Positions 5,545 to 56,065 of a stretch of 64,000 nt of DNA are shown piece by piece (the stretch's first letter is position 1; each line of letters begins with the position of its first letter). The translations under genes and the position numbers were made by a program. Origin of the DNA: Alphaproteobacteria bacterium (GTDB lineage Bacteria > Pseudomonadota > Alphaproteobacteria > Rs-D84); NCBI GenBank assembly GCA_017511715.1, contig JAFWJF010000007.1:6421-70420 (forward strand), written 5' to 3'. The notes under the pieces are model-generated. The model worked only from the letters and a program-made list of their open reading frames with translations. It made no database searches and was not told the origin of the DNA.

Positions 5545-5622
5545 TGGGGCGGGTGACCAGATTCGAACTGGCGACATTCGGTACCACAAACCGACGCTCT
5601 AACCAACTGAGCTACACCCGCC
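5545..5622 (-). tRNA. tRNA-His (anticodon GTG)
   Basis: Cloverleaf with anticodon loop TTGTGGT, extra 5' G(-1) pairing with discriminator C, T-loop GTTCGAATC, 3' CCA encoded. Confidence 0.85.
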
Positions 5623-5642
5623 ATAACTTTTGGGTAAAAACT

Positions 5643-5718
5643 TGGTGGAGCTGATCAGACTCGAACTGACGACCCCTTGCATGCCATGCAAGTGCTCTAC
5701 CAACTGAGCTACAACCCC
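5643..5718 (-). tRNA. tRNA-Ala (anticodon GGC)
   Basis: Acceptor GGGGTTG with G3:U70, anticodon stem CTTGC/GCAAG with loop ATGGCAT, TTCGAGT T-loop, CCA encoded. Confidence 0.85.
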
Positions 5719-5807
5719 ATGCGAGAAAGTATTTTATATTTCTTCTTGCAAAAAGTCAAATCATTTTGCTAACCTTTCTCTATCGAATATATCAACAGGA
5801 GTTTATT

Positions 5808-6368
5808 ATGGATTATTCATCACTGAAAACCGAAGTCGAACAAAAAACAGCCCAAACATTAGAAGTTTTACAAAATGCCTTCGCTGGCTTGCGCACCGGG
5901 CGTGCATCTGTGCATTTACTAGATGGTGTAAAAGTGCCTGTGTATGGCTCTGAAATGCCGCTTAATCAGGTTGCAACTGTTTCAACGCCAGATACTCAAA
6001 CATTATCTGTGACTGTTTGGGATGTTACCAATGCACCTGCTGTAGAAAAAGCGATTCGTGATTCAGGTTTGGGCTTAAATCCAATGACCGCGGGTGGTGT
6101 TATTCGTCTGAATCTGCCACCATTAACCGAAGAACGTCGTCGCGAATTAACAAAAGTTGCCGGAAAATATGCCGAAGAAGCCAAGATTTCCATGCGTAAC
6201 ATCCGTCAAGATGCGATGTCTAAAATCAAACGCGCCGTCACAGATAAAGAAATTTCTGAAGACGATCAGCGTAAATATGAAGAAGACATCCAAAAGGTCT
6301 TTGATGGACGCGGTGTTGAAGTTGATGCAATGGCGAAACAAAAAGAAGCCGATATTATGTCTGTTTAA
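5808..6368 (+). CDS. frr: Ribosome recycling factor
   Basis: 187 aa from ATG at 5808 (RBS aggag 7 nt upstream); conserved Frr sequence; first gene of frr-uppS-cdsA-rseP-bamA block. Confidence 0.95.
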   Translation: MDYSSLKTEVEQKTAQTLEVLQNAFAGLRTGRASVHLLDGVKVPVYGSEMPLNQVATVSTPDTQTLSVTVWDVTNAPAVEKAIRDSGLGLNPMTAGGVIRLNLPPLTEERRRELTKVAGKYAEEAKISMRNIRQDAMSKIKRAVTDKEISEDDQRKYEEDIQKVFDGRGVEVDAMAKQKEADIMSV

Positions 6369-31459: not shown

Positions 31460-32455
31460 TTGATTCAAGCCACGATTTATGATAAAATAAAAAATATGAC
31501 GAATGTAGTACTTGAATCTTTATTAAAGCCATTGGAAGAATTTTATCGCCCTTCCTTTGTTGAAGAAATCGCGATAAACCATGCTGGCGAAGTATGGATG
31601 CGCCTTAACGGTGGGCGTGTTCCATGGGTTTCTTATAACGCAGATATTTTATCTAAACAGTATTTGGTCGATTTAATTCACACGGTTGCAAACATATACG
31701 AACGCCCATTTGATCCGATTCATGGTGTGCCGGTTGTTTATGCGACTTTGCCGGGCAATCATCGTTTTTCTGCGATTGCTGGTCCAAATGTTCAGTATGA
31801 TGAAAACGATGTCACCGGGGGGGTTGCATTAAATATTCGCGGCGGTGGCGTTAACGAGACCAGTTTCGAGAATTATCATCTTAAACGTGGGGAAAAATTA
31901 CTAAAAATAAAACCGCGCGAAAATGTCCGCCCTGATGACCCATACGAACGATTGATGTCCGCAATAAATGACGGCAGTCCGATTTTAATATCAGGCGCAA
32001 CATCAACAGGTAAGACCACATTCCTTAATCACATGTTGACATTGATAGACCAAAACAGTCGCGTTATCACTGTCGAAGATGCGCGCGAAATTCGTGTTCC
32101 GCAAAAAAATCGTGTTCATTTTGTCTTGTCACGGACGGAACAAACAAACGATTTTAATTATGCACGATTGCTTGATTTGGTTGTTCGCATGACCCCAGAT
32201 GTTATAATCGGTGGGGAAATATCCACTGATAATGCAGCGGTACTTTGGGAAATGTTGGGAACCGGGCATGACCATTTTTACACAACAATCCATGCAGAAA
32301 GCGCAGAAGCAGCATATGCCGCATTCGCAGACCGCATATTGCATACCCAACCCGCATACGACAGAACCGATTTAATCGCAGAAATGAAAAAGAAAATTCG
32401 TGTAGTCCAACTTTCACGCGAAGGGACTTTGCGTGCTGTAACGGAAGTTGTTTAA
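31460..32455 (+). CDS. VirB11/TrbB-family type IV secretion ATPase (orphan)
   Basis: Walker A GATSTGKTT, Asp box and His box spacing typical of P-loop T2SS/T4SS ATPases, ~320 aa like TrbB/VirB11; true start may be the internal Met at ~31496. Confidence 0.7.
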   Translation: MIQATIYDKIKNMTNVVLESLLKPLEEFYRPSFVEEIAINHAGEVWMRLNGGRVPWVSYNADILSKQYLVDLIHTVANIYERPFDPIHGVPVVYATLPGNHRFSAIAGPNVQYDENDVTGGVALNIRGGGVNETSFENYHLKRGEKLLKIKPRENVRPDDPYERLMSAINDGSPILISGATSTGKTTFLNHMLTLIDQNSRVITVEDAREIRVPQKNRVHFVLSRTEQTNDFNYARLLDLVVRMTPDVIIGGEISTDNAAVLWEMLGTGHDHFYTTIHAESAEAAYAAFADRILHTQPAYDRTDLIAEMKKKIRVVQLSREGTLRAVTEVV

Positions 32456-32943: not shown

Positions 32944-33405
32944 TTATTTTTGTGGCAGGCTGTTTTGCACAGCAGAGCTAAAAAGGCCACTGCGCATCCT
33001 CGGTAGCGTCTGAACATAGTTTGAAGCACAAAATTGTGCGCAAGAGTTTGAACAAGTACTTACATGTCCTCTGCTATATCCATACACCCAAGCAGACAAA
33101 GCAGGATGTGTCATCCGACACCAACAATATTGACCGTTTGTTTCCCCACCAACAACCAATTCACCGTTATCATGCAGGTCTGCTGTTCCAGAACTCTGAT
33201 TAGTATTCAAACACGCCGAGCGACCATGAATTGTTCCGTATGGAAATATAACATGCCATGTCGCGTTTGGATTATCATAGTAAGAGCTAACGCCATCAAT
33301 AGACGGGTCCAGCACTATTGTTATTGTGTCGTTTTTGGAACACATTGTCGCGGCAGGCAATGCCATCGGTAATATCATCGCAATTATTATTATCAGTTTC
33401 TTCAT
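32944..33405 (-). CDS. Secreted cysteine-rich protein, paralog family member (153 aa)
   Basis: Signal peptide; C-terminal motif GxYCWCxM...W.YGY...CxxxCxxxCAS...R.G.FSSAVQ shared with 33533-33988 and 40241-41413. Confidence 0.5.
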   Translation of the reverse strand: MKKLIIIIAMILPMALPAATMCSKNDTITIVLDPSIDGVSSYYDNPNATWHVIFPYGTIHGRSACLNTNQSSGTADLHDNGELVVGGETNGQYCWCRMTHPALSAWVYGYSRGHVSTCSNSCAQFCASNYVQTLPRMRSGLFSSAVQNSLPQK

Positions 33406-33532
33406 CCTTCCTTTCCTTTTTGTTTTGTTTGTTTAGTTCCCAGACTTGCATCCTTTTGATTAGGGGTGGGCTGTATTAAAAAAAGAAAGTTTGTCGTTTT
33501 TCCACCCCTAATCAAAAGGACTTGCCGCCCTT

Positions 33533-33988
33533 TTACCACATCGATTCAAATACCGCTGTGCGAAATGTGTCATCGTCCTTCATCGCATCTGCGCAATCGG
33601 TCGTGCATGTCGATGCACACGCTGAATCTGTCGAATATGATTTAAGGTATATCCAATATGATGTCGGACCGCTTTCGTATCCATATGCTGGCACGGGCCA
33701 CATTTCACACCAACAATGTATCCCTACATCCTCCGCCCCTGTTACAAGGTTCGTCTTTGGCGTGTTTGCCACACCACTTATATCATTACACGATGCATAG
33801 CCCGTTAATGTCTGATCCGGAAACACCACTTTCCATGCTTTGTTTGTCGTATCCACCTGTTTCGATGTCCCGTCCACGTTCTTTCTGAATATCCCTATGT
33901 AACTGTTAGTTTTCACACAGGTCGTAAATCCATACGCAGACATACCTGTCGTTATTATTGTTATTATTATCAATATTGCCTTTCTCAT
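33533..33988 (-). CDS. Secreted cysteine-rich protein, paralog family member (151 aa)
   Basis: Signal peptide; HCWCEMWPVPAYGY ... CASTCTTDCAD ... FRTAVFESMW. Confidence 0.5.
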   Translation of the reverse strand: MRKAILIIITIITTGMSAYGFTTCVKTNSYIGIFRKNVDGTSKQVDTTNKAWKVVFPDQTLTGYASCNDISGVANTPKTNLVTGAEDVGIHCWCEMWPVPAYGYESGPTSYWIYLKSYSTDSACASTCTTDCADAMKDDDTFRTAVFESMW

Positions 33989-33996
33989 ATCCCCCC

Positions 33997-34767
33997 CTAT
34001 TTAATTAGATGTAAATCGTTATCACCGTATCGAACCCACACACTCGTTTCGTCCGTTGGTTCGTCCGTCAAATTCCCATAACATACACCATTGTTATACC
34101 CAACATTTAATGATGGTTGTGTCTGTGCGCTTGACCACAATGGAACAATAACGCCGTTGCTGGTCCGAAATGTCGTTATACCCAACCCACACAAAGTTGC
34201 ACATGTCCCCGCATTAGTCGTTAATTGTCCATCTTCACAAAAACTTACACATGTCGAAGCTGTCAAATCATATCCACATGAATCTTGTGCAATATATTGG
34301 CTGTATCCGGTCGCACACGAACCGTTTTTAGGCGCAAATGATGCAGAACCCGCCGCAACACCATAATAACCAGTCGGACAATTTGTCGTCCCATATGTCG
34401 TACATGTCGTATTGTCCGGCGAATAACCATTATCACAAAGTAATATTTCACTGCCAACAATTGCCCCATTATGTATTACCGCCACTGTTGTATCTGGTAA
34501 TGTTCGTGGTTCGTATCCACTAATATCGCACAAATCTTCAGATGGTGTCGTTATCATAAACGATTCCGAAGATGGCGTTATATCATGATATCCCGAATCA
34601 CAATTACCAATGCCGTATGTCGTACATGTCGTATTGTCCGGTGAATAACCATTATCACAGAGTAATACTTCACTGCCAACAATTTGCGCAGCAAAAAGCG
34701 CGCTTGTAAAAAACAAGCAACAAATGTTTATTCTTAAAATTCGCAAAAAATAGCTACCTTTGCTCAT
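33997..34767 (-). CDS. Secreted cysteine-rich protein with internal duplication (256 aa)
   Basis: Signal peptide; duplicated IVGSE(V/I)LLCDNGYSPDNTTCTTYG module; first gene of operon behind conserved leader. Confidence 0.5.
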   Translation of the reverse strand: MSKGSYFLRILRINICCLFFTSALFAAQIVGSEVLLCDNGYSPDNTTCTTYGIGNCDSGYHDITPSSESFMITTPSEDLCDISGYEPRTLPDTTVAVIHNGAIVGSEILLCDNGYSPDNTTCTTYGTTNCPTGYYGVAAGSASFAPKNGSCATGYSQYIAQDSCGYDLTASTCVSFCEDGQLTTNAGTCATLCGLGITTFRTSNGVIVPLWSSAQTQPSLNVGYNNGVCYGNLTDEPTDETSVWVRYGDNDLHLIK

Positions 34768-34895
34768 CTTTATTCCGCCCTAAAAACCACCAAATGTTTT
34801 AGGTGGTTGGAGGTTAGTAGCTATAAAAACAGTATAGTGCGCTTATTTATATATATCCGCGCCCTCCAACCTATTCCATGGTTGGAGGCGTTTAT
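34768..34895 (-). promoter_or_regulatory. Conserved structured 5' leader (copy X): hairpin CCUCCAACC/GGUUGGAGG, second CCUCCAACC, terminator-like hairpin + U-run
   Basis: Minus-strand hairpin 34861-34890. Second aaccuccaacc at ~34805-34815 overlaps stem ccacc-uaaaacauuu-ggugg + UUUUU (34782-34806), 15 nt before ATG. Same architecture upstream of 40241. Confidence 0.5.
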
Positions 34896-35088
34896 CGTCC
34901 GCTTTCGACGCTGTTTTCCAATGGCTACTACACCACATCAACAGAACACCTGTTGACACAGCTAGCGTAGCAAAAATATTATGAATCTTTCAAGAGTTTT
35001 TTTTACAAGTATGTTTTCATATTATTTGTGTGTATATCAAAGGCATTAAATTTAACCCATCCGCACACCACAAAATTAATCTTTAATA

Positions 35089-37284
35089 CTACACAAAACT
35101 TTGTGGGTTGACATCAATTTTTACACGAACATTTGTCGGTTGTTTTACTTTGTCCAACCACGCACGAACTATCGGTTGCAGATTCGCACGCGCATTACCA
35201 GACACCAAAAATCGCATACGATACCAATTTCTTATTTGATATATTTGTGCCGCGATTGGACCCATTATTTTACCGCCATTTAATGTCGGCGCTGCATGCG
35301 ATAATTCGGCGCAATATTTTTTAAGTGTTGATTCTTTGTCTGCTTCCACTATGACGGCTATCAGTTGTCCAAAAGGTGGCATTTGTGCCATGCGTCTTGA
35401 TTCCATATCAGATGCCATAAATTCGTCCCTGTCACCTGCACAAATCGCACGAATAACAGGATGTTCTGGTTGAAATGTTTGCAATAATACGCGTCCTGGG
35501 AATTCGCCACGCCCGGCGCGCCCCGCAACCTGAAACAGTTGTTGAAAAGTATGTTCCCCGGCGCGAAAATCTGTACCAAACAACCCCATATCTGCATCAA
35601 CGACACCAACCAAAGTCAAATTTGGGAAATGATGACCCTTGGCTAAAATTTGTGTTCCGATAATTATATCTATTTCGCCGTTTTCCATTTTGTGAACAAG
35701 GCGTTCCAACGCTTCGCGCGACATAATTGTATCACTGGACACCAGTGCAATACGCGCCTTTGGAAATTTTGACGCAACTTCTTCTTCTATTTTTTCCAGA
35801 CCTGCCCCACGCATTGAAACACTGTTTTTGCATTGCGGACAAACTGTCGGCAGATTTTCCATCCGCCCACACATATGACAAACCAGTTTGTTTATATGCT
35901 TATGATAATTATACGAAGTGGAACAATCAGGACAACCCGCAACCCAACCACATTTTTTACACTGAACAATCGGTGCAAACCCACGGCGGTTTATAAACAA
36001 CATCACCTGTTTATGATTTGCCAATGTGTCTGTGATTTCAGAACATAATTGCGGCGAAAGATTTCCAGATTTTTCTTCTTCTTCGACTTTATAAGAATCT
36101 GGACGATTAGCGCGCATATCGATTGTTTCTATGGTTGGCATTTGCGCACCGCCAAATCGCGAAGTCAATCGCAACCTGTTGTATTTCCCCAGCGCAACAT
36201 TATGCAAAGTTTCAACAGACGGTGTCGCAGATACCAACACTATTGGGAAACCCGCAATCTTTGCACGTAATATCGCCATGTCGCGTGCATGATAATTCCC
36301 CATGTCTTCTTGCTTATACGAAGTATCATGTTCTTCATCAACAACTATCAATCCTAAATTTTGCCACGGCAGAAATAACGCACTGCGCGTACCAACAACT
36401 ATGCGAATATCACCACGCGCAACCCCACGCCAAATATCACGCCGGCGCGCTGATGTCAAATTACTGTGCCAGACAACAGGTGGTGCACCGAAACGTTTTG
36501 TAAACCTGTCCATGAATTGTGCAGTTAATGCGATTTCTGGCATCATTAACAAAACCGATTTTCCAGCATTATATGCACGCAACACAGAATCAAAGTAAAC
36601 CTGAGTCTTGCCAGAACCTGTTATTCCGTCTAACAAATGCACAGAAAAATTGTTCGCGCTTATTGCGGTTGCTATTGTGTCTGCTGCCGCGCGCTGTTCG
36701 TCGTTCAATGTCACAGAACCTGTATCAAAATACTTATACTGGAAACGAGTATCTTTTATTTCACGCACATGAACAGGTGTTAAAACCGCGTTCTTTATCA
36801 TTGTTTTAACAACAGCACCGCTGACATGTGCAATATTTATGATATCGTTCACAGACATTGCTTCGTTATCATTAGAAGAAAAAGCATCTGCCACACTTTG
36901 ACGCGCATCTGTCATTTTAACCTTGGTATCAAAATTGAAATTGTATAACTGTTCTATTTTCGGGGCAGAAAAAGCATCCGGGACATTAAGAATCAATCGC
37001 AAAACCGCCCCTGGCGCCATAAGTGTCCAATCTGACATTTTATATATCCAATCTATGTCAGACGGCGACATTTTCCCCAATTTACAGATTTCAATAACAG
37101 ACTTTATCTTTGATTCTTCCAATCCACTGTCACCCGGACCAACGATTACACCAACATATTGCCGGTTCATGACCGTCACACGTGCAAACGCGCCGATTTC
37201 TGCACTTTCATTTAAACGATAATCATAGCCCCGATTGATAACATTGGGGACAAGAACTTTCACAATATCGCCAGGTTGAAACAT
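35089..37284 (-). CDS. priA: Primosomal protein N' (replication restart helicase)
   Basis: 731 aa, Walker A GITGSGKT, DEEH box, Cys-rich zinc-binding insertion (CxxC x4). Confidence 0.92.
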   Translation of the reverse strand: MFQPGDIVKVLVPNVINRGYDYRLNESAEIGAFARVTVMNRQYVGVIVGPGDSGLEESKIKSVIEICKLGKMSPSDIDWIYKMSDWTLMAPGAVLRLILNVPDAFSAPKIEQLYNFNFDTKVKMTDARQSVADAFSSNDNEAMSVNDIINIAHVSGAVVKTMIKNAVLTPVHVREIKDTRFQYKYFDTGSVTLNDEQRAAADTIATAISANNFSVHLLDGITGSGKTQVYFDSVLRAYNAGKSVLLMMPEIALTAQFMDRFTKRFGAPPVVWHSNLTSARRRDIWRGVARGDIRIVVGTRSALFLPWQNLGLIVVDEEHDTSYKQEDMGNYHARDMAILRAKIAGFPIVLVSATPSVETLHNVALGKYNRLRLTSRFGGAQMPTIETIDMRANRPDSYKVEEEEKSGNLSPQLCSEITDTLANHKQVMLFINRRGFAPIVQCKKCGWVAGCPDCSTSYNYHKHINKLVCHMCGRMENLPTVCPQCKNSVSMRGAGLEKIEEEVASKFPKARIALVSSDTIMSREALERLVHKMENGEIDIIIGTQILAKGHHFPNLTLVGVVDADMGLFGTDFRAGEHTFQQLFQVAGRAGRGEFPGRVLLQTFQPEHPVIRAICAGDRDEFMASDMESRRMAQMPPFGQLIAVIVEADKESTLKKYCAELSHAAPTLNGGKIMGPIAAQIYQIRNWYRMRFLVSGNARANLQPIVRAWLDKVKQPTNVRVKIDVNPQSFV

Positions 37285-37397
37285 GTTATTAAATTAGCTG
37301 TTTTTTTTATTTTTTTCAACAGACAAATAAAAATGTTGACAATTCGCGTTTTTGTATTATATTAACATTAAATAAAACCTAAACAAAGGAAAACCAA

Positions 37398-37928
37398 ATG
37401 GCAAAATCTAAACAACTTAAACAAAAACGCGCAATGCAGGTTGCGGAAGCAGAAGCTCAATTTGAAGCATACAAAGATTTTATTGTCAAAGAATTCATTG
37501 AAAAATTCGGCGGTTCTTATCAAACAGCCGAAAACATGAAAGACATTTGGCGCGACAGTTTTGTTTTTCGCCCAGAATGCGAACAATTTCTGATATCAAA
37601 AACAAAATTATTTATAAACCTGATGGGCGATTGCCATACCAGCGCAAGTCCTTGTTTTTTAAGAGTTATTACCGGCAGAATCAGCGAATACTTGGCGCGC
37701 TATATATGCAAAAAAGGCATATCCCGTAATGATTGCGTCAATCAGTTAAGAGATATCTTCTTTGTGAACAATCATCACGTAGGCCACGAAATAAGACGTT
37801 ATAAATCTGAAGAGAAAAAAGCCTATGCCATGAAATGTAGAGCAAAAAAACAAGCCGCACAAAAGGCAGCAAAAAAACAAGAACAATTGTTGCAAATACA
37901 AATTTTTGTTAATGAAAGCGTAAGATAA
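37398..37928 (+). CDS. Hypothetical protein (176 aa)
   Basis: Promoter ttgaca-17-tatatt upstream; Lys-rich termini; no family recognised. Confidence 0.35.
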   Translation: MAKSKQLKQKRAMQVAEAEAQFEAYKDFIVKEFIEKFGGSYQTAENMKDIWRDSFVFRPECEQFLISKTKLFINLMGDCHTSASPCFLRVITGRISEYLARYICKKGISRNDCVNQLRDIFFVNNHHVGHEIRRYKSEEKKAYAMKCRAKKQAAQKAAKKQEQLLQIQIFVNESVR

Positions 37929-37930
37929 AA

Positions 37931-38827
37931 TTATAATTGTTCAATTACACGTTCCAAATCTTTGTCGTTTGGAACGTTTTTTATTTCAATATCTGCGTTG
38001 TATTGCCCGTTAAACCAAGTACGTTGACGTTTTGCATATTGATTTGTTTTTGTTGTCCAATTTTCAATTGCTTCATTTTCTGAAATTTTTCCACGCAACA
38101 TATCACAAATTTGCACTGCACCAATCGCACGCGATGAATCAAGGTTATTTTTTATTATATTTGCACCCTCTTCCAGTGCACCACCTTTTATCATTTCAGG
38201 AATTCGCGATGCAATTCGTTTTAACAAATCTGCGCGTTCCGGCATAATCAAGACCCGCAGTGCATCAGGCACCACCGCACAATCACGTGGTTTTTTTTGC
38301 CAATCTGTTATATGTTTTCCCGTTTCAAGAAAAACTTCCAACGCCCGTGCAATTCTTTGTGGGTCTGTCGCGACAAATTCGGTTGGCAACATTTTTTTTG
38401 CACTTTCAATATCTTCTGCAACCATTTCGCGCGCTTTATTACGATTCGATTCGCAAACTTCTGGAATTTGCGAAATACCGTTTATAAGAACATTTATGTA
38501 ATATCCTGTCCCGCCAACAAAGATTGGCACTTTGCCCATCGCAACGACTTCATCAAATGCCTGTTTTGCCAATGCTAAATAATCTGCCACGCTGATATGT
38601 TCATTCAGCGAAAGAATTGAAAACAGTTTATATGGCACACCATCTATTTCATCAAACCTGCCAGAAATTTCCGCGAACGGTGATGCGGATATATTTTCAA
38701 TTCCACGATATATTTGCACACTGTCCGCGTTTATGATTGCACCATTGATACGCTTTGCCAGTTTATGTGCAAATTCAGATTTCCCCGATGCAGTCGGTCC
38801 TGCGATAATAATTGCGTTGTGTTTCAT
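37931..38827 (-). CDS. miaA: tRNA dimethylallyltransferase
   Basis: Start MKHNAIIIAGPTASGKS (P-loop); table ORF extends upstream with alternative start; 298 aa typical MiaA length. Confidence 0.88.
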   Translation of the reverse strand: MKHNAIIIAGPTASGKSEFAHKLAKRINGAIINADSVQIYRGIENISASPFAEISGRFDEIDGVPYKLFSILSLNEHISVADYLALAKQAFDEVVAMGKVPIFVGGTGYYINVLINGISQIPEVCESNRNKAREMVAEDIESAKKMLPTEFVATDPQRIARALEVFLETGKHITDWQKKPRDCAVVPDALRVLIMPERADLLKRIASRIPEMIKGGALEEGANIIKNNLDSSRAIGAVQICDMLRGKISENEAIENWTTKTNQYAKRQRTWFNGQYNADIEIKNVPNDKDLERVIEQL

Positions 38828-38946
38828 GGAACTATTATAAAATCGCGAATTTGGCTTTGCAAGGGAAGCCCCGAAAAAAATCCCGCTGTGTTTTTTTGCC
38901 TTTTTGTGATAGAATAGACGCATAGAAAAAAGAAAAAGGATAAAGG

Positions 38947-39945
38947 ATGAAAAAAATTCGTGTTGCAATAAATGGTTTTGGGCGCATTGGGCGTCTGGTA
39001 TTGCGTGCCGCATTGGAATCAGGTCGCAAAGATATTGAATTTGTCGCAGTTAATGATTTGGCCCCAGCGGACGAAAATGCATACTTGCTGGAATATGATT
39101 CCGTTCATGGTAAATTACCAGTGGATGTAAAGTTAGATGGCGAATATATTTTGGTTGGCGGACAAAAGATAAAATGTTTATCTGAACGCGACCCATCTAA
39201 ACTGCCATGGAAACAATTAAAGATAGATATTGTTATGGAATGCACGGGGCTGTTTACATCTGCGGATAAAGCACGCGTTCATTTGGACAACGGCGCAAGG
39301 CGCGTTTTGGTTTCTGCCCCATCGGCCGGCGCAGACAAGACAATCGTCTTTGGTGTTAACGAAAACAAATTGACCAAGAAAGATTTAATCGTATCAAATG
39401 CATCTTGCACAACAAATTGTTTGGCACCGGTATTAAATGTGCTGGATAAAAAATTCGGCATTATAAATGGATGGATGACAACTGTGCATGCATACACAGG
39501 CGACCAGCAACTTTTAGATAAAAACCACAAAGATTTCAGACGTGCACGTGCGGCAAACCTTTCGATGATTCCAACCAGCACCGGTGCCGCAAAGGCAATT
39601 GGTCTGGTATTGCCAAAATTATCCGGCAAAATGGATGGTATCGCAATTCGCGTTCCAACCCCAGATGTTTCTGTTGTTGAATTGGCGTTAAATGTGAACA
39701 AACGCGCAACGATTGATTCTGTGAATAAAGTAATGAAATCTGCTGAATCTGAAATATTGGGATACAATGATAAACCACTTGTTTCGATAGATTTCACAAA
39801 TGATAAACACAGTTCGATTTTTGATGCATCACAAACACGTGTAATTGATGAACATTTAATACACGTGACCGCGTGGTACGATAACGAATGGGGCTTTTCT
39901 AACCGTATGTGTGATACAGCCGTTGCGATTGGTAAAACTTTATAA
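38947..39945 (+). CDS. gap: Glyceraldehyde-3-phosphate dehydrogenase
   Basis: NGFGRIGR NAD motif, active-site SCTTNCLAP. Confidence 0.95.
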   Translation: MKKIRVAINGFGRIGRLVLRAALESGRKDIEFVAVNDLAPADENAYLLEYDSVHGKLPVDVKLDGEYILVGGQKIKCLSERDPSKLPWKQLKIDIVMECTGLFTSADKARVHLDNGARRVLVSAPSAGADKTIVFGVNENKLTKKDLIVSNASCTTNCLAPVLNVLDKKFGIINGWMTTVHAYTGDQQLLDKNHKDFRRARAANLSMIPTSTGAAKAIGLVLPKLSGKMDGIAIRVPTPDVSVVELALNVNKRATIDSVNKVMKSAESEILGYNDKPLVSIDFTNDKHSSIFDASQTRVIDEHLIHVTAWYDNEWGFSNRMCDTAVAIGKTL

Positions 39946-39953
39946 AATAAAAA

Positions 39954-39978
39954 TACCGCCAATACGGCGGTTTTTTTT
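39954..39978 (+). terminator. Intrinsic terminator after gap
   Basis: Hairpin accgccaatacggcggt + T8. Confidence 0.6.
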
Positions 39979-40013
39979 ATTTGTATTTCAAGTGATTTTT
40001 TTGTATAATCTAT

Positions 40014-40240
40014 ACATCGGCGAATAAATATTTGCTGATGGGGTGTAACGACCCTTTACAAATAGGCGTCTTGTTGAATTAAAGCAAGATGAAAAATGCT
40101 CCAACCACATTGGGTTGGAGGGTCGCAAAATATATCGAATATGCGCACAATTTCCTATTTGAATTGTCGTTAACCTCCAACCGCCTGAATTTCATGCGGT
40201 TTATTTGTTTATAAACAAAAAAGGAACAAAAGGAAACAAT
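40014..40240 (+). promoter_or_regulatory. Conserved structured 5' leader (copy Y) with promoter TTGTAT-17-TGTATAAT upstream
   Basis: Hairpin cuccaacc-acauug-gguuggag (~40099-40120). Second aaccuccaacc (~40172-40182) overlaps hairpin ccgcc-ugaauuucau-gcgg + U-rich (~40181-40212). ATG at 40241. Confidence 0.5.
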
Positions 40241-41413
40241 ATGAAATCGAAAATAATAATGACCTCTATGGTCGGCTTGGCGTTTGCGATGCCGGCATTC
40301 GCGGCGCCAAGCAATTCTTCCAACACATTTCCGTCAAACGGACAAATGCAGGAAGACACTAAATACATAGGTCAGGCAACACAAGCAAACCTGCACTCAT
40401 ACGAAGGACCGGTGACGGCAACCGCAAATTATACCGATACGCCATATACCGTGACGGCGGGTAATTATTTGCCAATGTCATCGGAAACAGTTGCACAATG
40501 TACCAGCGGTAATTATTGTCCGGGAATAAACGGCACAGTAAATTACAGCACGTCAGCGAATCAAGGTTTAACCGCATGTCCAAATGGATATCCAAATTCA
40601 TTGGCTGGCGCAACATCGGATACAGAATGTTATACGGCATGCACGGTTGCAAATGCGGGAATCGCCAACGCAAGCGCAGTATCCGGTAATGATTATTATG
40701 GCACAGGCACCGACACTTGTTATCCAACAGAATGCGTTGCCGGTTGGCATCTTAACCCCGGCGCACCAGATTTAACAACGATAATCGGCGAATCGGCATC
40801 AACAGGGTATGGATATCAAAATAACAGTGCCACAGCCCCTGATGGTGAAAACCAAAATACATACGGCATTACCCAAAATAATGAATTTGTGGTTGATTAT
40901 GGCAACAAAGGAAAAATCCACGGATATGCAAGATGTAGTACGCGTTCTGCAACCGACCCATGGGTGGGTCCAGATGAATATGAATTACAATCAGACAATA
41001 TAACCAGCACATTACCAGATAGCACGGGTCAATATTGTTATTGTCAACTTGATGGCTATACACCGAATGGTCAATCAATGCAAAGCGTGTCTGCCCCTTG
41101 GGTGTTCGAAGTCGACTTAGGTTCTTTGTCGCTGGATTGTGCGTCGAACTGCGCGCGCAACTGTGCGTCCGATCTGCGGTCCAACTTCACGTTCCGTACC
41201 GCGGTGTTTAACGCCGTTGCGGCAGCAGGCGCACCATCATGTGATGCGAATGTTATTTCTATCACATGGGATGGTGCGGATGCGGCGGACGTTGCGGCGA
41301 ATGATGCAGGACAATGTACATATGGTGGCGATATCAATACACCGAAAAAGGCTGTGCATGTTCCCGGAAAGACGTTTGTCGGTTGGACATTCGACACACC
41401 AAGTGGAAACTAA
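40241..41413 (+). CDS. Secreted cysteine-rich protein, paralog family member with C-terminal Listeria-Bacteroides-repeat-like module (390 aa)
   Basis: Signal peptide MKSKIIMTSMVGLAFAMPAFA; shared motif QYCYCQLDG...SAPWVFEV...CASNCARNCAS...FTFRTAVFN; C-terminal ISITWDG...GKTFVGWTF. Confidence 0.55.
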   Translation: MKSKIIMTSMVGLAFAMPAFAAPSNSSNTFPSNGQMQEDTKYIGQATQANLHSYEGPVTATANYTDTPYTVTAGNYLPMSSETVAQCTSGNYCPGINGTVNYSTSANQGLTACPNGYPNSLAGATSDTECYTACTVANAGIANASAVSGNDYYGTGTDTCYPTECVAGWHLNPGAPDLTTIIGESASTGYGYQNNSATAPDGENQNTYGITQNNEFVVDYGNKGKIHGYARCSTRSATDPWVGPDEYELQSDNITSTLPDSTGQYCYCQLDGYTPNGQSMQSVSAPWVFEVDLGSLSLDCASNCARNCASDLRSNFTFRTAVFNAVAAAGAPSCDANVISITWDGADAADVAANDAGQCTYGGDINTPKKAVHVPGKTFVGWTFDTPSGN

Positions 41414-55565: not shown

Positions 55566-55640
55566 TGGCAGCCCCACTCGGATTTGAACCGGGATTCTCG
55601 CCTTGAAAGGGCGGTGTCCTAACCATTAGACGATGGGGCC
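55566..55640 (-). tRNA. tRNA-Glu (anticodon TTC)
   Basis: GGCCCCATCGTCTAATGGTTAGGAC... with anticodon loop CTTTCAA; resembles canonical bacterial tRNA-Glu; CCA encoded. Confidence 0.85.
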
Positions 55641-55682
55641 AAGGACTCTTATAAACCGCCGTTTTATCGGCGGTAAAATCTC

Positions 55683-55760
55683 TGGCGGGATGTAAGGGGC
55701 TCGAACCCTCGACCTTCTGCGTGACAGGCAGACGCTCTAAACCAGCTGAGCTAACACCCC
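55683..55760 (-). tRNA. tRNA-Asp (anticodon GTC)
   Basis: Acceptor GGGGTGT/ACATCCC, anticodon loop CTGTCAC, T-loop TTCGAGC, CCA encoded. Confidence 0.85.
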
Positions 55761-55980
55761 AGAGCAACGCTTATATTATAACACCCGTGCACAAAAAGCA
55801 AGCATTTTTTTCACAAATTGACAACAAGTAAAAAATATCTTACAATATGATCATGAAAAAGATAATATTTTTGATTTGCATGGTTTTGTTGTGCGCTGTT
55901 GTTCTGGGTGGATGTGGGGTGAAATCAGAATTAGCGCATGATACTGATTATCCACGCAATTATCCGGTATATTAAAATCT

Positions 55981-56065
<85 letters not shown>

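Follow-up and report, generated by a model that had tools for sequence, protein, structure and literature searches.

Two loci for secreted, cysteine-rich proteins lie in the window analysed here, a 64-kb stretch of contig JAFWJF010000007.1 from an alphaproteobacterium of the order Rs-D84, and both begin with a leader built around copies of one 9-mer, which raises the question of what these leaders do. Leader 1 is on the minus strand, upstream of the open reading frame (ORF) at 33997-34767, and leader 2 is on the plus strand, upstream of the ORF at 40241-41413. A reading of the DNA alone, here called the original prediction, had proposed a dedicated regulatory RNA in which two copies of a hairpin arm compete for one partner. 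We consider it probable that the two leaders belong to a new family of cis-acting transcription-attenuation RNAs, bistable and riboswitch-like in design.

The 9-mer CCTCCAACC or its complement occurs five times in the window against 0.19 occurrences expected, and none of 100 dinucleotide-preserving shuffles, the null for this count, reached five. All five sites are confined to the two leaders, at 34805-34813 (-), 34863-34871 (+, the GGTTGGAGG arm), and 34880-34888 (-) in leader 1, and at 40113-40121 (-, the arm) and 40174-40182 (+) in leader 2. Both leaders run in the same order, from a CCUCCAACC-loop-GGUUGGAGG hairpin through about 50 nt of AU-rich sequence containing AUAUAU...GCGCAC to AACCUCCAACC, a GC stem, and a U-run, with 35 nt (leader 2) or 14 nt (leader 1) between terminator and ATG. 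This is the shared architecture that the original prediction had described, and it was seen in both leaders. The minus-strand coordinates given with it did not hold: pairwise alignment shows that the leaders are similar further upstream, including a common UGAUGKGGUGUA, so that the conserved element starts about 60-85 nt further upstream, extends to 34957 in leader 1, and is preceded there by promoter-like boxes up to 34994. Scored with a covariance model (R1, built from 21 copies with the type I 9-mer of the two leaders), the leaders reach 138 and 113 bits in the orientation of their genes and 15 and 12 bits in the reverse orientation, and the model found no copies in the window beyond these two.

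In 5'-to-3' order, the element of about 190 nt comprises an extended -10 box, a hairpin (P0), a G-run, a long-range helix (P1), an internal loop, a second helix (P2), a junction with hairpins P3, P4, and P5, the 3' strands of P2 and P1, the second CCUCCAACC, and an intrinsic terminator whose stem uses the AACC that it has in common with this downstream copy. The minimum free energy (MFE) folds of the two window leaders agree in this architecture, which we call State A, with z-scores of -4.8 (leader 1) and -4.95 (leader 2) against shuffles. The same fold was obtained for two more paralogous leaders, one on the contig of the window (locus L001, z-score -5.2) and one from a different scaffold of the same sample (L002, z-score -6.3), and 31 of the 31 first-found copies adopt it. 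The AU-rich stretch, previously regarded as a spacer, is instead occupied by P5 and the 3' strands of the two long-range helices. The antiterminator model of the original prediction is supported, and what it had missed is the 5' half (P0, P1, P2, and P3) and a further local helix, Palt, described below.

Compensatory evolution carries the case for State A. The sequences of P1 and P2 differ in every copy while the pairing is maintained, as is already seen between leaders 1 and 2. In an alignment (A6) of 104 sequences, 103 of them distinct, fitted to the model, 95.7% of the cells of State A are paired; double-change cells number 590, compared with 180 +/- 14 after column shuffles and 42-76 when the partners are slid by one to three columns, controls that overstate the significance because many of the aligned sequences are kin. 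Compensatory changes affect six of 11 pairs in P1, all eight in P2 (93% of cells paired), and three of four in P5. G.U pairs are numerous (e.g., columns 9-302 of A6 are GU in 87 sequences), which fits pairing at the level of RNA rather than DNA.

The element begins with P0 (leader 2, 40016-40039; leader 1, 34937-34957, both from MFE folds), which forms at least 5 bp in all 104 copies despite 73 distinct stem sequences and in 97 of 104 ends flush with the GAU of the model just before the G-run. Upstream, 77 of 105 copies have a TGnTAnAAT-like extended -10 box whose distance from the GGGG run that follows is constant, at about 29 nt; it reads TGATAAAAT in most relatives and TGTATAAT in leader 2 (40002-40009), where it was assigned from the sequence and from the position of the box across copies. 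The boxes of leader 1 (34964-34994, with a -35 CTTGAA at 34989-34994 and a -10 TGCTACGCT at 34964-34972) are consensus-like only. Because the -10-like box stands at a fixed distance upstream, we infer that P0 is the 5' end of the transcript.

The G-run, the 5' strand of P1, and a CCC follow as GGGGUGUAACGACCC (40040-40055, supported by covariation), and next comes the 5' strand of P2, CAAAUAGG (40059-40066, supported by compensatory changes); the 5' strands of P1 and P2 in leader 1 are at 34924-34934 and 34911-34917. The G-run and the CCC form a local helix around the P1 5' strand that itself covaries (A6 columns 9-23: GC72/GU15/AU14/UA1, with one exception; columns 10-22: GC98/GU3/AU2, both A10 sequences pairing with U22). 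A first register of this helix (columns 9-24, 10-23, and 11-22) fails, with 73 of 103 sequences unpaired at 9-24, and it is the shifted register (9-23, 10-22, and 11-21) that covaries. As the main pairing of the G-run, the local helix is better supported than an outer extension of P1 (GGGU:ACCU), since in the two A10 sequences and the one U9 sequence the compensation is local and not distal. The local helix and the P1 core may coexist as an H-type pseudoknot.

Within the junction, P3 (40067-40091 in leader 2, from MFE folds; 34896-34910 in leader 1) varies in length and appears dispensable, because it is missing from compact variants of 109-114 nt. P4 has its 5' arm GCUCCAACC at 40098-40106 and its 3' arm GGUUGGAGG at 40113-40121 in leader 2 (hairpin, 40098-40121) and reads CCUCCAACC-AUGGAAUA-GGUUGGAGG in leader 1 (34863-34888). 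P5 (40122-40148, supported by covariation; 34839-34862 in leader 1) carries a conserved AU-rich loop, AAAAUAUAUCGAAUAUG in leader 2, in which positions A207 and A227-A230 are invariant in the alignment; this loop may be a tertiary-contact element. The P1 3' strand and the downstream copy together span 40166-40182 in leader 2 (copy CCUCCAACC, 40174-40182) and lie at 34812-34821 and 34805-34813, respectively, in leader 1. The terminator reads AACCGC...GCGGUU followed by UAUUU in leader 2 (40179-40206), overlapping the last 4 nt of the downstream copy, and AACCACC...GGUGGUU followed by UUU in leader 1 (34782-34808); both are GC-rich stem-loops with a U-run, as expected of intrinsic terminators. 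With a strict rule (a stem and at least five U in eight), terminators were found in 100 of 106 copies, which bears out the terminator-like stem noted earlier before the genes.

The second fold, State B, rests on the coordinated variation of three 9-mers, namely, the P4 5' arm, the P4 3' arm, and the downstream copy, which change in concert across at least three sequence types. Type I has CCUCCAACC, GGUUGGAGG, and CCUCCAACC in these three places; type II has CUCCUGAC, GUCAGGAG, and CCUCCUGACC; and type III has CCCUGAC or UCCCGACC, GGUCGGGG (also GUCGGGG), and CCCCGACC. One-sided changes are wobble-compatible only (L067, L049, L011, and L046). Among 34 copies reached via protein homology, and thus free of DNA-pattern bias, the antiterminator formed by the P4 3' arm and the downstream copy is 97.7% paired with double changes at five of nine pairs, and P4 is 94.7% paired with double changes at six of nine; the arms were chosen by best complementarity, which inflates the percentages and not the coordinated type changes. 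The antiterminator is perfectly Watson-Crick in most copies, and G.U pairs or end mismatches are frequent in P4. The proposal that the second CCUCCAACC can replace the first as the partner of GGUUGGAGG is thus borne out by three segments that change together.

Palt, the other helix of State B, consists of ACAAUU...AAUUGU flanking the P2 3' strand. In leader 2 it spans 40147-40167 and encloses the P2 3' strand CCUAUUUG (40154-40161); in leader 1 it is CUAUA/UAUAG (34833-34837 with 34821-34825) around the P2 3' strand at 34826-34832. Its variable pair (A6 columns 270-290) is AU in 75 and UA in 28 sequences, with none of 103 unpaired; leader 1 has the UA version, and type III copies, as read from their sequences, have a third version, UCAU...AUGA. 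Palt and a complete P2 are incompatible, as the 3' strand of P2 would form the 7-9-nt loop of Palt, and Palt also uses G291 and U292, which are taken from the inner end of P1. Folding with the antiterminator enforced gave one coherent State B in six of six leaders tested, in which P0, P3, and a small 5' helix accompany an antiterminator that encloses P5 and Palt, and under this constraint Palt formed in 85 of 100 copies. Two mutually exclusive predicted folds are therefore both backed by covariation. The alternative-structure prediction that had been suggested for the leaders thus returned State A as the MFE fold and a coherent State B on enforcement.

The 9-mer types also bear on whether the repeats act as DNA. 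Three 9-mer copies per window locus, two direct and one inverted, in an element that is multicopy in the genome could be operators of a dimeric DNA-binding protein or remnants of a mobile element such as a miniature inverted-repeat transposable element (MITE). We rejected such a reading, which seems to us extremely improbable, on account of the strand specificity of the model (138 versus 15 bits), the frequent G.U pairs, and the covariation of P1 and P2 across more than 100 nt. The 9-mer sites are, moreover, downstream of the promoter-like -10 box, and the 9-mer varies between copies in one genome; inspection by eye, which was not a systematic search, revealed no terminal inverted repeats or target duplications. 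Different types occur together in single genomes (JAZURV has type I many times and type III; JAZTWA has types II and III), so the 9-mer appears to be constrained by pairing in cis and not by being the recognition site of one factor in trans.

How widespread is this RNA? A descriptor consisting of the hairpin and a downstream Watson-Crick copy of its 5' arm, run on 79 related loci, found about 30 copies that fold alike, each followed by a terminator, and the covariance model recovered these and three more. About 37 copies are in Candidatus Enterousia genomes and at least 120 in contigs of gut and rumen metagenomes, giving at least 157 overall. The metagenome contigs were collected by the exact three-part type I pattern (at least 120, all 120 of those listed matching the full-length model), and the set hence carries no information on P4 variation. 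A scan of GTDB species representatives identified the organisms as Candidatus Enterousia and related metagenome-assembled genomes (MAGs) from the rumen and from animal and human guts, and the 307 homologues of the 390-aa protein encoded downstream of leader 2 are all from uncultured Alphaproteobacteria. Members of the order Rs-D84/Candidatus Enterousia are uncultured gut and rumen bacteria that have genomes of about 0.75-1.0 Mb and lack most biosynthesis (PMC12306168). At least 13 distinct copies were counted in the examined parts of a single Enterousia MAG (GCA_045606425.1).

Several copies depart from the common form. R1 misses the most divergent type III copies (L002, L074, L045, and L018), which were found by the descriptor and by eye. 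In two of these (L002, at 2820-2845, and L074) there is an additional hairpin between P3 and P4, and the AU-rich P5 loop is replaced by a GAAA tetraloop. Compact variants of 109-114 nt without P3 occur at L097 (4239-4349+ and 8662-8773-) and L124 (2329-2437- and 2530-2658-), the latter with two copies of the element in tandem before one gene. Identical copies are present in two viral-classed IMG/VR contigs (L200, 12035-12172, UViG_3300024269_000278; L201, 783-920, UViG_3300018494_000543) and precede a signal-peptide gene with a GTG start; these contigs could be prophage, a mobile region, or a misclassified bacterial fragment.

Nearly all copies stand directly before genes for cysteine-rich proteins with signal peptides. 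Downstream sequence of 450 nt or more was available for 87 copies, and in 77 of these an ATG-initiated ORF in the same orientation starts 27-187 nt (median 51) after the downstream 9-mer copy. Signal-peptide-like N-termini were found in 65 of these 77 ORFs compared with 12 of 38 control ORFs, and the median cysteine content was 3.5% compared with 0.9%. Seven of the ten copies without an ATG ORF were inspected: behind six there are signal-peptide genes that start with TTG or GTG, a gene with a frameshift, or GC-rich repeat insertions in the spacer, and the seventh (L142) precedes a small helix-turn-helix (HTH) ORF. A minority of copies, often of the compact variant, precede small Xre-like HTH ORFs (L097, L124, L083, L153, and L142). 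The downstream proteins belong to several mutually unrelated families. The original prediction of a dedicated regulatory RNA had been made to depend on covariation among homologous leaders and on further copies upstream of genes in related genomes, and both were found.

In the window, leader 2 precedes the gene for a 390-aa secreted, cysteine-rich protein (40241-41413, +), and leader 1 precedes an operon (32944-34767, -) for secreted, cysteine-rich proteins of 256, 151, and 153 aa. The two loci had been described as paralogous. This is not supported for their first genes, as no homology was detectable between the 256-aa and 390-aa proteins (BLASTP E 0.15, hhalign probability 1.5%). Only the genes that follow in the operon are related to leader 2's gene: the 151-aa and 153-aa proteins are paralogues (E 3e-20) and have a C-terminal cysteine-rich domain in common with the 390-aa protein (E 3e-8). 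The 390-aa family had no match in Pfam or NCBIfam, and an AlphaFold2 model of the protein (pLDDT 73) had no fold match in the PDB by Foldseek. Near the leader 1 operon, at a distance of about 500 nt from its end (32944), lies a gene for a VirB11/T2SSE-type secretion ATPase (31460-32455, +; Pfam T2SSE, E 1.8e-22), which suggests that the secreted proteins encoded nearby belong in the context of type IV secretion or a pilus.

The position of the element before genes also speaks to the idea that it is an independent trans-acting small RNA (sRNA) of about 190 nt, with gene adjacency being incidental or due to co-mobilization. A promoter-like box, a hairpin at the 5' end, and a strong terminator are all part of the element; there are many copies per genome with common single-stranded motifs, and termination by default would make the terminated RNA abundant. 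We nevertheless regard a stand-alone sRNA as very improbable and rejected this class: every copy with enough flank precedes a gene in the same orientation, typically with a ribosome-binding site (RBS) within about 50 nt, the gap between leader and gene leaves no room for a separate promoter, and an antiterminator that competes with the terminator and is conserved by covariation would be useless to such an RNA.

How, then, might the attenuator work? Transcription would begin at the extended -10 promoter, with hairpin P0 at the 5' end of the RNA. In State A, the long-range P1 and P2 would close the junction with P3, P4 (CCUCCAACC/GGUUGGAGG), and P5; the downstream CCUCCAACC copy would stay free of the antiterminator, its last four bases (AACC) would enter the terminator, and transcription would halt about 35 nt (leader 2) or 14 nt (leader 1) before the start codon. 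In State B, local Palt pairing around the P2 3' strand would disrupt P2 and the inner pairs of P1, and the downstream copy would oust the P4 5' arm and pair with GGUUGGAGG. The resulting 9-10-bp antiterminator would use up the 5' strand of the terminator, letting RNA polymerase enter the secreted-protein gene, so that P4 would serve as an anti-antiterminator. The decision point may be the emergence of the P2 3' strand, which could join either long-range P2/P1 or local Palt; once formed, Palt would probably keep the downstream copy beside the base of P4. Invasion could then start at the unpaired G after the P4 3' arm (G194:C300 in A6) and advance in the direction of transcription as the P4 5' arm is displaced.

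In step-wise MFE folding of both window leaders, P0, the 5' helix, P3, P4, P5, P2, P1, and the terminator appear in sequence. As State A is favoured and is reached sequentially, termination is the predicted default, and we infer that an effector chooses between P1/P2 and Palt during transcription. Several points weigh against a switch of this kind, in addition to the kinship of the aligned sequences, the way the 9-mer arms were chosen, and the composition of the metagenome set mentioned above. In 98 of 100 copies State A is the MFE fold, a fold forced to contain the antiterminator is less stable by a median of 9.5 kcal/mol (10th-90th percentile, 4.9-14), and neither Palt nor the antiterminator ever appears in the step-wise folding of the two window leaders; State B, with State A so strongly favoured, would require an effector or stabilizer, or kinetic access. 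Termination and readthrough of the leaders are themselves model-based predictions. The GAAA tetraloop in L002 and L074 indicates that the P5 loop is no universal ligand pocket, and the downstream secreted-protein genes offer no hint of a ligand.

The same energetics would suit an attenuator that has no specific effector and gives either a fixed low readthrough or a response to polymerase speed, NTP levels, NusA/NusG, or temperature. The thermodynamic preference for State A and the terminator, to which sequential folding leads straight, agrees with this explanation, and reduced genomes of about 0.75-1.0 Mb may hold few dedicated regulators. However, both helices of State B, the antiterminator and Palt, are kept complementary by coordinated changes, and the tandem copies at L124 recall an arrangement sometimes seen in regulated switches; we therefore judge a constitutive or purely kinetic attenuator to be improbable.

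For a regulated attenuator, our leading guess, offered tentatively, is that a small molecule or second messenger acts as the effector by binding to the fold of the junction; the element would then be an orphan riboswitch. The stronger version, namely, a new riboswitch class that binds a metabolite or second messenger and is the master switch of the surface and secreted repertoire of the gut Alphaproteobacteria of Rs-D84, genome-reduced and probably dependent on a partner, is possible and held with a little more doubt. Nearly as likely as the leading guess is that the same attenuator architecture responds to a protein or a trans-acting RNA, in the manner of PyrR, TRAP, or LoaP, the factor either clamping State A (at P4/the junction or the P5 loop) or holding the freed 5' strands for the antiterminator. 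The nested terminator/antiterminator/anti-antiterminator logic is that of PyrR, the dual pairing explains most conserved nucleotides and leaves few for a ligand pocket, and two features, the A-rich linker between P3 and P4 and the conserved A/U-rich loop, resemble sites for a protein or for an Hfq-type factor. The targets make up a surface/secretome regulon rather than a metabolic pathway, and some copies precede small Xre-like HTH genes. On the other hand, the Rfam protein-binding leader families are unmatched, and we recognized no known protein-binding motif in the leaders (no genome-wide protein search was made). Since P4 types differ within one genome, such a factor could not read the P4 sequence. 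A bolder variant of the new-riboswitch-class version starts from these mutually incompatible 9-mer types in one genome: terminated leaders, present in abundance, could engage in trans cross-talk with leaders of their own type that are still being transcribed, which, if true, would mean type-specific group control of sets of surface proteins.

Some members of the 390-aa family have other leaders. A wholly different leader was found at L006, L007, L008, L010, L013, L016, and L022 and at the further loci L033, L038, L048, L049, L056, and L060 (all at about 5800-6000). It comprises a TGGTATAAT promoter, a short ORF with a Shine-Dalgarno (SD) sequence (GTG/ATG-AAAGTCGTGAAAGGCGCAGTTTTCTA), a (CA)n tract, hairpins, a strong terminator (AACAGACAAATAACG...CGTTATTTGTCTGTTTTTTT), and the RBS, with n = 10-27 varying between loci. 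This looks like simple-sequence-repeat phase variation, in which the frame of a leader peptide would be coupled to attenuation. A third conserved leader type upstream of family members (L027, L029, L031, and L039, at about 5850-5990) has the motif ...AAAATATCATTG..AAAAACGGCGCAAAGTGCTAAAATA..GGCATAGAGCAGAAAAATCAATGCCGAA....

Repeats of another kind are scattered in Enterousia genomes: GC-rich palindromes (TTCCCCTCC-TGYGGAGGGGTGG...), some of them between the leader terminator and the gene, were seen in spacers and intergenic regions at L009, L015, L020, L063, L068, L101, and L133, and resemble repetitive extragenic palindromic (REP) or MITE elements. A repeat array with a 56-nt period (CCCCTTCG..CGAAGGGG) is present at L076 (6269-6500).

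At least 13 copies of an elaborate 190-nt switch serve one class of genes in a genome of about 1 Mb or smaller. So many copies in so small a genome suggest that control of secreted, cysteine-rich surface proteins is central to the lifestyle of these cells and that a single signal coordinates these proteins. The different (CA)n leader on the same gene family in sister genomes suggests that on/off control of surface proteins evolved at least twice. The element is a candidate new orphan switch for which compensatory evolution documents both folds, beyond the "aptamer" alone, and its design is unusual in that a duplicated 9-mer invades an internal junction helix. It may also offer a compact, portable terminator switch for engineering.

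Does the element belong to a known class? A search of the whole window against the 4,227 covariance models of Rfam 15 at gathering thresholds yielded five tRNAs only and no family for the leaders; the tRNAs form two clusters, with two genes at 5548-5718 (-) and three at 55569-56062 (two -, one +). A permissive search with both leaders at E values up to 10 returned weak chance matches only. The best of these was the nqrA-II motif (RF04310; 17.5 bits against a gathering threshold of 55, E about 1-1.5), onto which a hairpin followed by a terminator-like hairpin can be threaded; the alignment covers generic hairpins and skips the core, leaving 72 model and 42 sequence positions unaligned, and we dismissed it as chance. 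A T-box leader was rejected as well, as neither leader matched a tRNA-sensing family at E up to 10 and the architecture differs. We also rejected a leader peptide: the recurrent AUG in GAUGGGG stands flush against the P0 stem, has no SD sequence, opens frames of 14 and 33 codons in the two window copies that are not conserved, and is missing in many copies (GGUGGGG in L030; GACGGGG in L067, L069, and L070; UUCGGG in type III). Full-text literature searches found no description of the element. The original prediction did not recognise a known riboswitch class in it, which agrees with these searches, and on the sequence evidence it is a genuine new cis-regulatory RNA family, a candidate for an orphan riboswitch or attenuator.

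Its closest parallels in logic are the PyrR-dependent attenuators of the Bacillus subtilis pyr operon, in which three nested, mutually exclusive hairpins of the 5' leader act on termination. As there, the 5' strand of the antiterminator is held in a hairpin further upstream (P4 in the element), and the 3' strand of the antiterminator overlaps the terminator, so that the nested terminator/antiterminator/anti-antiterminator hairpins of PyrR- and TRAP-type systems are present. Unlike the pyr attenuators, the element has no PyrR binding-loop motif and no match to PyrR in Rfam, its anti-antiterminator is built into a junction of several helices, about 140 nt in size, which long-range helices close, Palt also participates, and its targets are genes for secreted proteins and not for pyrimidine metabolism. 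Like riboswitches in general, it has a covarying structured domain in the 5' untranslated region (UTR), with a fold common to more than 150 copies, and a computationally predicted expression platform with mutually exclusive terminator and antiterminator. Transcriptional OFF riboswitches whose expression platform is an intrinsic terminator (e.g., SAM-I, FMN, lysine, and c-di-GMP-I/II) resemble it: the 5' UTR holds a multi-stem junction that P1 closes, a terminator comes directly after P1 on its 3' side, nucleotides in the junction and the loops are conserved, as are both folds, and there are many copies per genome as well as tandem copies, here in at least one locus. They differ in that their antiterminator pairs the P1 3' strand with the terminator 5' strand, whereas here it pairs the P4 3' arm with the duplicated 9-mer; the element matches none of the 4,227 families, and its gene set provides no metabolic clue. 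The c-di-GMP GEMM-I/II regulons, in which one RNA class is repeated before genes for surface, adhesion, and secreted proteins, are an analogy of use only, as the element is structurally dissimilar to these RNAs, without an Rfam match, and not homologous. Its very high copy number per genome, its secretome regulon, and its invading 9-mer set it apart from PyrR-type leaders and OFF riboswitches.

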